Positions 8,843 to 57,679 of a DNA stretch of 64,000 nucleotides are shown here, piece after piece; positions within the stretch are counted from its first letter, which is position 1; every line of letters begins with the position of its first letter. A program made the translations under genes and the position numbers. This DNA is from Candidatus Bathyarchaeota archaeon (GTDB taxonomy: Archaea > Thermoproteota > Bathyarchaeia > 40CM-2-53-6): NCBI GenBank assembly GCA_963833125.1, contig CAWHWX010000012.1, positions 1 to 64,000 of the forward strand, given 5' to 3'. Below the pieces are notes generated by a model. It saw nothing but the letters and a program-made list of their open reading frames with translations. It did no database searches and was not told where the DNA came from.

Positions 8843-8961
8843 GGGCCGGTAGTTCAGCCTGGTATACCTAATCTAAGAAAGGGCCGAAGAACGTCCGGTT
8901 TGCAAGCCACCATGGCCTAAGGTCCGGAAGGTCGCGGGTCCAAATCCCGCCCGGTCCACCA
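8843..8961 (+). tRNA. tRNA-Ala(TGC) with two BHB introns (21/22: 8866..8888; 37/38: 8905..8922), CCA encoded
   Basis: Acceptor GGGCCGG/CCGGTCC with G3:U70 Ala identity, D stem GTTC/GAAC, anticodon stem TCCGG/CCGGA with TGC at 8901-8903, T arm GCGGG-TCCAAAT-CCCGC. Both inserts fold as relaxed BHB motifs. Confidence 0.92.
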
Positions 8962-19005: not shown

Positions 19006-19239
19006 TGGAGGTCTTTCGTTTTGTGGAGTAGTTTTCAGTACCAATGCATGCAGCAGAAGAACAAAAGGTTACATAGTTCGCGCAGATTTTCCAGAATCCG
19101 TAGCCCGGTGGTGTAGTGGACAGTTTACCCACAGAAGCATAGAGGGCTTTGGACCCTCCGACGGGAGTTCGAAAGGCACTGAGTTGCCCGAAATTCTCCC
19201 CCGGGCTACCAAACATCACTTCGACTACTTGCTCTGATC

Positions 19240-23429: not shown

Positions 23430-23954
23430 GTGATGATCTTGAACCATCTGCGTATGGGAAAAGACGATTACGATGCGTTGGGGAAACTGGAAGAGGCTTT
23501 CGAAAGGAAAGATCTTCAATTCTTCAAGTCGTTTCTCGAACGATCGAAGGATTACCCTCTTCTCCTCCGAGTACATTCAGTCTGCATGCTCGAACACATT
23601 GGAGACGAGAGCATGATCGGTCCTCTGTGTAAGGTCCTGAGGGAAGATGAAAGCCCGCTGACCAGGCATGAGGCTGCTTTCACGATGGGCCAACTGGGTT
23701 ATCGTTCTGCGGTACCCGCTTTGGTAGATGCGATGTTTCATGATAAGAGCCCGATTGTTAGGCATGAGTCAGCTGTGGCCTTGAGTTCGATCGGGGACGA
23801 TGAAGTTGTCCCGGAGTTGAAGAAGGCGATTGAGGATGAGGATGAAGATGTTCGCAACTCTGCTCTGATAGCATTCGAGTATTTGACATACTTGCAGAAA
23901 AAACGTAGCGTTGCCGCCGAGAGCATGGCGGTGAAGCCGAAGATTCGGCTGTGA
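23430..23954 (+). CDS. HEAT-repeat protein (PBS lyase/DOHH-like)
   Basis: RHEAAFTMGQ and RHESAVALSSIG repeats. Confidence 0.8.
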   Translation: MMILNHLRMGKDDYDALGKLEEAFERKDLQFFKSFLERSKDYPLLLRVHSVCMLEHIGDESMIGPLCKVLREDESPLTRHEAAFTMGQLGYRSAVPALVDAMFHDKSPIVRHESAVALSSIGDDEVVPELKKAIEDEDEDVRNSALIAFEYLTYLQKKRSVAAESMAVKPKIRL

Positions 23955-23990
23955 AGCATTTAACTTAGTGCTCGGTTCGTAGTGGGTTCA

Positions 23991-24165
23991 GGGGCGGTGG
24001 TCCAGACCGCGAGTCAACCCCTCGTGGGGACAACTTGGTCTAAGATAGCGACCATAACGATTCGCCTTAAAACCGGTCTCGGGACCACAACTGAACGGCG
24101 GGAACACCGGTGATCGAGGGTTCAAAATGACTGAAAAAGTCATGACATTCCCTCCCGCCCCACCA
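23991..24165 (+). tRNA. tRNA-Pro(CGG) with four BHB introns (15/16: 24006..24033; 25/26: 24047..24071; 37/38: 24084..24104; 59/60: 24127..24148)
   Basis: The spliced product GGGGCGG TG GTCC AGCTTGGTCTA AGAT A CCGGT CTCGGGC ACCGG TGATC GAGGG TTCAAAT CCCTC CCGCCCC A CCA is a normal cloverleaf. TATA-like TTTAAC lies ~30 nt upstream. Confidence 0.9.
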
Positions 24166-24253
24166 TTCGCTTGACGATTTGAAAAATTGAGGGAATGCAG
24201 AGTTTCTAAGACGGTCAAAAATTAGGGGTTTTCGATGGCGTCTCTTTCTGAGC

Positions 24254-25036
24254 TTAACGCGGAGGTGGAGGAGGAACTGGAACCCAGGTTATTGAAGGGG
24301 GTTGCTGGGGTTGCTGTCTTCGGCTGAAAACAACCAGAGCTACAGTTGTGATTATGACGGCTGCGAGGATTGCTGCAATTGCAACGTACCCAAGTAGGTT
24401 CGAGTTATTCTGGTGCAGAGCCTGGTATTGCGATTGGTTTCTGTACAGGTGCTGCTGTGAGGGTTGCTGATATGGAGGAGTCTGGTATGGGTTGGAGTTC
24501 TGGTACGGATACTGTGTTGGGTATTGGCTGGGGTATTGGTTTGGATATTGGTATGGGTATTGAGTTACTGTGGTAGTGGAGACTAGCTGGTTTCCTGACA
24601 CGGCTTGAAATGTTTCGCTGGTTGAGGTTATTAGGCTCCCGTATTGGCTGGCGTAGATCGAAGCGGAGATTGTGACTGTGTGGTCTTGCGTCGTTGGTGG
24701 AAGGTTGAATCCTAATTGCCCGCTGAACGTTGTACCGCCGTTTGAGGATTGTAGAACGGTGTTCACCGATCCTAAGCCGACGTTTGACGTTGCGTCGTAG
24801 GCGTTTCCTGTTACGTATAGTTGGTTGCCGTAAACTGTCGTGCAGGTTGCTGACATGGGCACTACGATTGGAACGTTAGAGTAAGAGTACACTGCGGGCA
24901 TGACGGGGTAGCTCAGTTGGGCCATACAGGCATCAGCCCAGACAGCGTTGGTGTTCGCTCCGACTGCGATGATTGCTATGATTAAGACAATGGCGATCAT
25001 GGCATAGTTACGCGTTTTCGCGGATGTTTGAACCAA
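24254..25036 (-). CDS. secreted membrane-anchored protein with QYP repeats
   Basis: Signal peptide, QYPYQYPNQYPSQYPTQYP tract, C-terminal TM and Pro-rich tail. Confidence 0.75.
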   Translation of the reverse strand: MVQTSAKTRNYAMIAIVLIIAIIAVGANTNAVWADACMAQLSYPVMPAVYSYSNVPIVVPMSATCTTVYGNQLYVTGNAYDATSNVGLGSVNTVLQSSNGGTTFSGQLGFNLPPTTQDHTVTISASIYASQYGSLITSTSETFQAVSGNQLVSTTTVTQYPYQYPNQYPSQYPTQYPYQNSNPYQTPPYQQPSQQHLYRNQSQYQALHQNNSNLLGYVAIAAILAAVIITTVALVVFSRRQQPQQPPSITWVPVPPPPPR

Positions 25037-47209: not shown

Positions 47210-47480
47210 ATGCGAAAGAAGCTAACCCTTCGTGTTGACAGCGATCTTGTTCAGCAAGCGAAAGCTCTAGGAATTAACCTAAGTCGGTTAACTGAGAAGG
47301 CAATTGTGGCTTCCATCGGAAACCGTACGTACATGCACGTACAGAACGACATTAGCAGGATGGTTCACATAGAAATGCAACCAACTCAAAATGAGTCGAA
47401 GTCAGTTAATGAGTTAGATAATGAGTCGGGTTGGCGTGTTGGCCGTAACCCACCTTCTGTTTTAGGCGACATTCATCTAA
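47210..47480 (+). CDS. integrase N-terminal part, int(N), with RHH (CcdA-like) DNA-binding domain
   Basis: MRKKLTLRVDSDLVQQAKALGINLSRLTEKAI reads into the att repeat in the same frame as int(C). Confidence 0.75.
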
Positions 47481-47735
47481 TCGGGATACCCGCACCTCCG
47501 GCGGGAGGTCATTGGCGCCTATTATCCCTTTCACGACGTGGGCGGGCATTTCACCCTTACCTCCAGCCTCATCAACGCAAGCGCATCATCTTCCGCGGCT
47601 AGCGGAGGTTTCTTTCTGCGCCCTGACCCGACCTCTCAGTCGGCATCTCACGATGCCACGCTTCCGCCACGTGGATGGAGTTTCCTCAAGCCCATCATAC
47701 ACCGGGCCCGGAGTCGCTCACCAACTCGCCAACCC
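47428..47735 (-). ncRNA. rnpB: RNase P RNA
   Basis: On the minus strand: P1 GGGTTGGCG/CGCCAACCC, CR-I GAGGAAACTCC, CR-V AACAGAAGGTGGGTTA. ~308 nt, with TTTAT ~25 nt upstream. Confidence 0.92.
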
Positions 47736-52719: not shown

Positions 52720-54269
<1,550 letters not shown>

Positions 54270-54445
54270 TAGTAAACTTCGAACGGACTGGAATGCAAAT
54301 GAGTTATGACTGTAAGCCTAACCGTCCGATAATGCGGCCGCTGAGGAAGCTCAGTGGCTAAGGGTGTAGTGGTCATCCGCTAGAATGATCATGATGAACA
54401 CCGTGCATAGGCCTCTAACGTTAGACGAGTGTGGGTTCCATAGTA

Positions 54446-57497
<3,052 letters not shown>

Positions 57498-57679
57498 GAA
57501 AATGGAATCCACCGTCTGATAACGCAATCCGGAGGCCTATGCACGGTGCGAATCAAACACCAAACTATATTCAATTTGATTCGCTCTCTTCAGGTAGCGG
57601 AGCCTCTGAAGAGCTGAACGAGTAGCTCACGCAATTCTATGCGTGACGTTGTGAAGCAGGTCGTTGGGAGCGCGTTTGT

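Follow-up and report, generated by a model that had tools for sequence, protein, structure and literature searches.

A genus-wide tRNA-Pro(CGG) gene with four predicted BHB introns in Bathyarchaeia

Can a tRNA gene of which more than half must be removed before a cloverleaf appears still be a working gene? This question is raised by positions 23991-24165 (+) of the window analysed here, a 64,000-nt stretch (contig C12:1-64000) of a 3.07-Mb Bathyarchaeia assembly in 39 contigs (G000) that is 87.8% complete and 7% contaminated. A preliminary description of the locus had proposed a tRNA-Pro gene with anticodon CGG, divided into five exons of 15, 13, 12, 22 and 17 nt by four inserts of 28, 25, 21 and 22 nt, and on re-examination its coordinates, segment lengths, four intron sites and helices were all exact. 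When we joined the exons by coordinate, ARAGORN called the resulting 79-nt product as tRNA-Pro(cgg) with an encoded CCA, and this call, together with the comparative data presented below, bears out the proposed identity. The spliced tRNA has an acceptor stem of 7 bp, A73, the encoded CCA, and a D stem with the mismatch C13:A22. As had been anticipated, removal of the four inserts restores a standard cloverleaf, judged both by ARAGORN and by the match of the junctions to intron-less orthologues, and the introns account for 96 of the 175 nt (55%). From comparisons at the sequence level, we conclude that 23991-24165 holds a genuine gene for tRNA-Pro(CGG), which carries four predicted BHB introns and occurs genus-wide.

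All pieces of the gene are collinear on one strand, with the inserts at 15/16, 25/26, 37/38 and 59/60 in tRNA numbering. Exon 1 (23991-24005, +) comprises positions 1-15, that is, the 5' strand of the acceptor stem, U8, the 5' strand of the D stem, A14 and G15, and is invariant in 20 of 20 copies. Intron 1 (24006-24033, +; 28 nt, 15/16) is of the HBh' type, with all four pairs of the central helix H formed (GTCC/GGAC), 7 bp in h' and 1 bp in h. Exon 2 (24034-24046, +) carries positions 16-25, namely the remainder of an 11-nt D loop and the 3' strand of the D stem, with 1 of its 13 columns variable. The HBh' intron 2 (24047-24071, +; 25 nt, 25/26) has the full central helix TAAG/CTTA and 4 bp in h', and is without an outer helix (h 0 bp). 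Positions 26-37 follow in the invariant exon 3 (24072-24083, +), which contains the 5' strand of the anticodon stem and the loop with the anticodon CGG at 34-36 and G37. Intron 3 (24084-24104, +; 21 nt), at the canonical site 37/38, is an hBH motif with four of four central pairs (CTCG/CGGG, one of them G-U), 2 bp in h' and 6 bp in h, the latter consisting of the anticodon stem and one further pair. Exon 4 (24105-24126, +) spans positions 38-59, with the 3' strand of the anticodon stem, a 5-nt variable loop, the 5' strand of the T stem and the T loop to A59, and 1 of its 22 columns varies. Intron 4 (24127-24148, +; 22 nt, 59/60) is an hBHBh' motif with three of four central pairs (TTCA/TGAC), 5 bp in h' and 5 bp in h, which is the T stem. 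The invariant exon 5 (24149-24165, +) supplies positions 60-76, with the end of the T loop, the 3' strands of the T stem and the acceptor stem, A73 and the encoded CCA. Upstream of the gene lies the element GAAGCNTTTWA (23953-23964, +), whose TTTAA starts at -32, and a GAAG plus TTTWA box is present in all 20 copies at -30 to -34, the remaining flank being variable. By its sequence, this element is a putative promoter composed of a BRE and a TATA box.

The four inserts had been described as having BHB geometry with 3-nt bulges cut after the second base. We placed the cuts in the same manner and used the standard register, in which the four intron bases directly before the intron's final two are the pairing partners of four exon bases. 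With the features of an EndA substrate in mind, we found a complete central helix in introns 1-3 and three of four pairs in intron 4, two 3-nt bulges on opposite strands throughout, and at each intron at least one flanking helix of at least 2 bp. The described geometry was thus upheld for all four inserts, and it also gained strong comparative support. Across the 20 copies, intron 1 (24-28 nt) has four of four central pairs in every copy, and intron 3 (14-26 nt) likewise has four of four central pairs together with an h of 6 bp in 20 of 20. In intron 2 (18-25 nt), the central helix has four pairs in 11 copies and three in 9, with 3-6 bp in h', and in intron 4 (21-28 nt) it has four pairs in 6 copies, three in 12 and two in 2, with 4-6 bp in h', so that one or two central-helix mismatches are found in 14 of the 20 copies. 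Intron 2 lacks an outer helix, its A/U central helix is weak, and its modelled fold marks it as the weakest of the four. It is extremely improbable that self-splicing, trans-splicing of separate pieces, RNA editing or a similar route takes the place of EndA and RtcB in removing the inserts: the EndA motif stands in the right register at all four inserts, no Rfam intron family matches at the locus, the pieces are collinear on one strand, and the inserts measure only 14-28 nt across the 20 copies, which is too short for a ribozyme.

To read such genes directly, we used a BHB-aware parser similar to SPLITS, which follows a cloverleaf leftwards from the encoded CCA and may skip BHB-like stretches of 10-90 nt. 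Without guidance, the parser ranked the same four-intron parse best at the locus, with weaker alternatives in the D arm only. It returned 53 loci on the two strands of the real genome, 32 of them with an ARAGORN-positive product, and 17 loci on the reversed, uncomplemented genome, none of which was ARAGORN-positive. Under relaxed rules, spurious five-intron parses arose at most loci, and for this reason the evidence for the present gene lies in the comparative data and not in the parse alone. Thermodynamic folding was also considered. The minimum free energy (MFE) of the 175-nt precursor is -76.4 kcal/mol (z -4.7) and belongs to a long-range fold that lacks the BHBs of introns 1-3 and contains 16 of the 50 model pairs. 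In each of the 20 copies, the fold with all four BHBs lies 11-22 kcal/mol above the computed MFE, so thermodynamic folding alone gives the model no support. In local folds, each BHB motif comes within 0-3.5 kcal/mol of the local optimum; the BHB fold of intron 1 is itself the local MFE (-13.8 kcal/mol), and the model fold of intron 2 reaches -2.5 kcal/mol with a local MFE of -2.9 kcal/mol.

Conservation within the genus was assessed by BLAST of the locus against 40 relatives, which gave near full-length matches with all four inserts at 78-97% identity in 18 of the 22 other genus genomes. Where a locus is near-identical, its record is titled as a Bathyarchaeia MAG from soil or peat. A second four-intron copy, with 95% identity, is located on contig C17 of the same assembly. 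This 45-kb contig is collinear with C12:580-32600 at 72-95% identity and has the same Ala-Gln-Pro order of tRNAs, and it stems either from a relative binned together with this genome or from an old duplication. Parts of larger contigs recur on several small ones as well (C2, C3, C6, C21, C23, C29 and others), and the bin probably mixes close relatives. In an alignment of 20 copies, only 2 of 79 exon columns are variable as against 69 of 107 intron columns, a difference that is descriptive because the relatives are not independent. When the acceptor stem and the four motifs (51 pairs) were imposed on the alignment, 95.1% of the 1019 cells paired across the 20 copies, whereas 44-52% did so in a control in which the partners were slid by 1-3 columns. 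Changes on both sides were seen at six pairs, a number that was reached by 0 of 500 shuffles. Among these inserts, intron 2 shows compensatory changes at two h' pairs, and one h' pair of intron 4 occurs as CG in 10 copies, UA in 8 and UG in 2. RNAalifold, run without any imposed structure, recovered the acceptor stem, the full motif in the case of introns 1 and 3, and the h' helix in that of introns 2 and 4; for intron 1, H, the bulge and h' were all predicted. This pattern indicates that the BHB helices are kept by compensatory changes in the genus.

The strongest support for the four-intron layout comes from junctions that are naturally intron-less in orthologues. Six tRNA-Pro(CGG) loci in other families of the order (L021, L024, L025 and L027-L029) have introns only at 37/38 and 59/60, and L024 is uninterrupted through its first 40 mature bases, which are identical to the joined exons 1, 2 and 3. 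Conversely, other genera of the same family have tRNA-Pro(CGG) introns confined to the D arm, located at 15/16 and 23/24 (L023, L035, L037, L041 and L053), at 15/16 and 24/25 (L038 and L046) or at 15/16 alone (L033 and L057). In L037 and other loci of this D-arm-only kind, exons 3, 4 and 5 are uninterrupted and differ by one compensatory T-stem pair. These orthologues also bear on the possibility that the gene is real and its D arm is laid out differently, for instance with two smaller inserts replacing intron 1 or with boundaries a few bases off. The parser does offer such alternatives with equal cloverleaf scores, other genera have the second D-arm intron at 23/24 or 24/25, and the relaxed parser, as described above, is prone to spurious multi-intron readings. 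However, the alternatives are weaker (three to four central pairs, h' 2-3 bp) than intron 1 with its four central pairs and 7-bp h', the orthologues without D-arm introns equal the joined exons 1, 2 and 3 exactly, and there is no AU before A26 that would permit a 23/24 cut here. A different D-arm layout is therefore hardly to be expected. For the four-intron layout itself, genus-wide conservation, compensatory changes and the junctions of intron-less orthologues, taken as comparative sequence evidence, argue that the observation is not due to chance.

Would such a gene still be in use? It might instead be a decaying tRNA relic with junk inserts, unused because CCG codons are read by a tRNA-Pro(UGG) or by another tRNA-Pro(CGG), and two such tRNAs are indeed present in the assembly. 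In four genus genomes (78, 76, 92 and 96% complete), neither BLAST nor exon patterns revealed a tRNA-Pro(CGG) copy (0 of 4) and weak matches nearby gave no Pro parse; these 4 of the 22 genomes imply that the gene may be dispensable. The only RNA-library contig at the locus, discussed below, is moreover unspliced. The preliminary description had held that the lack of a spliced product together with an intron-poor tRNA-Pro(CGG) elsewhere would speak against the gene, and the second half of this condition does occur: an intron-free one was found by ARAGORN at C28:34937-35013 (-). However, this tRNA starts with C1:G72, matches E. coli tRNA-Pro at 87% identity along its entire 77 nt and is, by its sequence, evidently of the bacterial type. 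The 10-kb segment around it (C28:30-40 kb) moreover has no match in 15 of 15 genus genomes searched, save for one 94-nt hit. Since it is bacterial-type and its segment is unmatched in all 15, the C28 tRNA does not explain away a genus-wide gene under purifying selection. In addition, the exons are frozen while the inserts drift, the drift of the inserts is compensatory within the splice helices, and the promoter-like box is kept in every copy. We regard the relic as a very unlikely explanation, and Rfam, ARAGORN and the parser detected no other archaeal-type tRNA-Pro(CGG) in the assembly.

It should be noted that C28 is a mixed contig according to NCBIfam. Its 80-100 kb part is matched in 15 of 15 genus genomes and carries single-copy archaeal ThrRS, ProRS, ArgRS and CdvC, so that the region with the bacterial-type tRNAs is either a horizontally acquired accessory island or an assembly chimera. 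An intron-free bacterial-type tRNA-Val(GAC) is also present at C28:57281-57357 (+), and the bacterial-type tRNAs of this contig sit among LacI-family, GalK/GalT and SDR genes. A sigma-70 search to type C28 as bacterial gave no match on C28 and a single, uninformative match on C16. The latter is a Sigma70_r2 domain at C16:67548-67751 (+; 55.6 bits) in a 273-aa frame of the largest contig, which otherwise looks archaeal, and such a domain is odd for an archaeon.

We then asked which enzymes could process the transcript. The assembly encodes two EndA homologues, an ORF of 185 aa on C34 and one of 190 aa on C14, as well as an RtcB gene. The C34 ORF most resembles the catalytic chain of the enzyme in A. 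pernix, S. tokodaii and P. aerophilum (E 8e-40 to 4e-28), its best match being A. pernix 3P1Z_B (E 8e-40). It retains the Tyr, His and Lys, the His aligning with the His-to-Ala site of 3AJV_B, and it aligns without gaps through the A. pernix stretch after the N-terminal strand, which may be the Crenarchaea-specific loop linked to the cutting of relaxed motifs. The C14 ORF has diverged, and in the alignment a gap falls where M. jannaschii carries the His. On these alignments, the EndA of this assembly would be of the two-subunit crenarchaeal type, presumably an (alpha-beta)2 heterotetramer. Passages of PMC4090602 tie (alpha-beta)2 EndA both to lineages with many non-canonical and multiple introns and to sites of the hBH and HBh' kind.

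With a probability of roughly 90%, we interpret the locus as a functional archaeal-type tRNA-Pro(CGG) gene whose precursor, with its four BHB introns, is processed by EndA and RtcB. Transcription would probably start from the BRE/TATA-like promoter about 30 nt upstream and yield the 175-nt precursor. Each intron, together with the neighbouring exon bases, would fold as a BHB or a relaxed form thereof (HBh' at 15/16 and 25/26, hBH at 37/38, hBHBh' at 59/60). From what is established for these enzymes, the two-subunit EndA would cleave each 3-nt bulge behind its second base and RtcB would ligate the five exons into the 79-nt tRNA with its encoded CCA. No fixed order of splicing should be needed, because the four motifs occupy separate stretches. 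In one run of a peat metatranscriptome, 24% of the sampled words were present, and a single RNA-library contig of 357 nt covers 23926-24165 in unspliced form with all four inserts. Its identity is about 96%, all 9 differences fall in the inserts, and it continues into unlike flanks. This contig may be DNA carry-over and, being unspliced, demonstrates neither transcription nor splicing.

The suggestion that standard tRNA finders would miss the unspliced gene proved accurate for the two that we ran. ARAGORN reported 0 tRNAs in the unspliced 64-kb window, Rfam gave no tRNA-Pro(CGG) match there at the gathering score, and RF00005 did not match the unspliced stretch 23900-24260 even at E<=10. In the whole 3.07-Mb assembly, Rfam returned only 18 tRNA matches above cut-off. 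ARAGORN and Rfam thus miss most tRNAs of these Bathyarchaeia genomes, and where such tools underlie inferences on the completeness or codon reading of Bathyarchaeia MAGs, these may consequently be off.

The gene does not stand alone in its intron content. In a partial census, we found 20 distinct archaeal-type tRNAs, all of them interrupted, with 40 introns or 2.0 per gene. These figures are biased towards tRNAs with an encoded CCA and a perfect acceptor stem, which the parser requires, and roughly one in two of the anticodons to be expected is missing from them; left out were ARAGORN-positive duplicates on C17, C2, C3, C29 and C6, together with one doubtful parse from C21 and each of the four C28 entries. 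A fuller census with the relaxed parser, which started from 11 Rfam hits, yielded 8 parses with a single ARAGORN-positive one among them, and was dropped as an approach. Two isoacceptors in the partial census carry four introns. The second is tRNA-Pro(GGG) at C16:326836-327018 (L072/L073), with strong motifs at 15/16, 20b/21, 30/31 and 45/46; 17 of 22 genus genomes contain it in full length, and a four-intron parse results at 17 of 18 loci. A tRNA-Pro(GGG) in another family of the order (L032, genome G036) also parses with four introns (20b/21, 30/31, 37/38 and 59/60), which implies that four-intron genes are not confined to one genus.

How unusual are four introns? The three-intron maximum given in the preliminary description agrees with the tRNAscan-SE 2.0 paper, where a passage gives 'up to three' introns per archaeal tRNA gene (PMC8450103), but it has been overtaken by a bioRxiv preprint of October 2026 whose text reports as many as five within one gene for Asgard archaea (10.64898/2026.10.13.758758). 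The present gene is thus at the upper end of recorded intron counts, at record level but not unprecedented, and its novelty is limited by the five introns stated in that preprint and by the four-intron tRNA-Pro(GGG) of the same genus. It nonetheless exceeds the 'up to three' given in PMC8450103, in a lineage for which full-text literature searches, with subscription papers outside their coverage, found no report of tRNA introns under either Bathyarchaeota or Bathyarchaeia. Searches of the same coverage for archaeal tRNA genes with four or five introns gave nothing beyond the work cited here. The four-intron gene accordingly extends known biology, and its mechanism is not new.

The closest parallels are found in three groups. 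In the Thermoproteales (Pyrobaculum, Thermofilum, Caldivirga), whose multi-intron tRNA genes were detected by SPLITS and tRNAscan-SE, passages of PMC4090602 and PMC8450103 describe genes with several short introns of the BHB, hBH and HBh' types, in canonical as well as non-canonical places, with 71 introns in 46 tRNA genes of P. calidifontis (PMC8450103), and a two-subunit (alpha-beta)2 EndA of broad specificity (PMC4090602). However, the catalogues as given in PMC8450103 end at three introns per gene, in contrast to four introns and more than half of the gene here, and the present host is a Bathyarchaeia lineage from soil and peat. Soil Asgard archaea, with genomes from wetland soil, share the near-complete interruption of their tRNA genes, many non-canonical introns, several genes missed by a standard annotator and up to five intervening sequences in one gene, according to parts of PMC11291895 and 10.64898/2026.10.13.758758; in three soil Asgard genomes, 92-95% of the tRNA genes are stated to be interrupted (PMC11291895, 2024). 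They belong to another phylum, and Bathyarchaeia are named in neither text as far as it was available (0 occurrences in that of the preprint; PMC11291895, 10.64898/2026.10.13.758758). In the present case, every junction is backed by intron-less orthologues and genus-wide covariation. Finally, the red alga Cyanidioschyzon merolae, as portrayed in passages of PMC3728597, can have as many as three BHB-type introns within one gene, placed in the D arm, at 37/38 and in the T loop, and the order of their splicing was followed by RT-PCR. That genome is eukaryotic and nuclear, with at most three introns per gene and some genes permuted (PMC3728597), in contrast to the collinear gene described here.

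The distribution of the introns suggests how the gene acquired its present form. The pattern exon 1-intron-exon 2 was restricted to one family (f1; 36 of 58 genomes: 18 of 22 in g1, 16 of 22 in g2, 1 of 1 in g14, 1 of 3 in g3 and 0 of 10 in g15) and was found in 0 of 46 genomes of nine other families. The pattern of a 37/38 intron in a CGG anticodon loop occurred in 18 of 22 genomes of g1, in 24 of 46 genomes of other families and in 2 of 36 genomes of other f1 genera, in neither case at the tRNA-Pro locus; a reversed-pattern control also gave a few matches, so that some of these distribution counts include noise. A recognisably similar intron is found at 59/60 in L021, which belongs to another family. 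The second D-arm intron (24047-24071 in the window) is positioned at 23/24, 24/25 or 25/26 depending on the genus, and the three neighbouring sites would reflect either sliding or separate insertions. In the simplest reading of these sequences, we infer that the 37/38 and 59/60 introns are old and order-wide, that the D-arm pair was added within the family, and that the old pair was lost in sister genera. There is about an even chance that this Bathyarchaeia family forms a third hot spot, besides the Thermoproteales and some Asgard lineages, in which tRNA introns have accumulated independently, with the layering readable in one gene as two order-wide introns, two D-arm gains and the loss of the old pair in sister genera. 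Genera with one, two or four introns in tRNA-Pro(CGG) provide a natural series for the gain, shift and loss of BHB introns.

Two further interrupted tRNA genes lie in the window, tRNA-Ala(TGC) at 8843-8961 (+) and tRNA-Gln(TTG) at 19102-19211 (+). Each has two BHB introns and is ARAGORN-positive after splicing; unspliced, both were missed by ARAGORN and were below the Rfam cut-off or undetected. The window is archaeal in character: Rfam also located an archaeal RNase P RNA (47434-47729, -) and, with no tRNA detected in its spacer, a 16S-23S rRNA operon (52720-54269 and 54445-57498, +).
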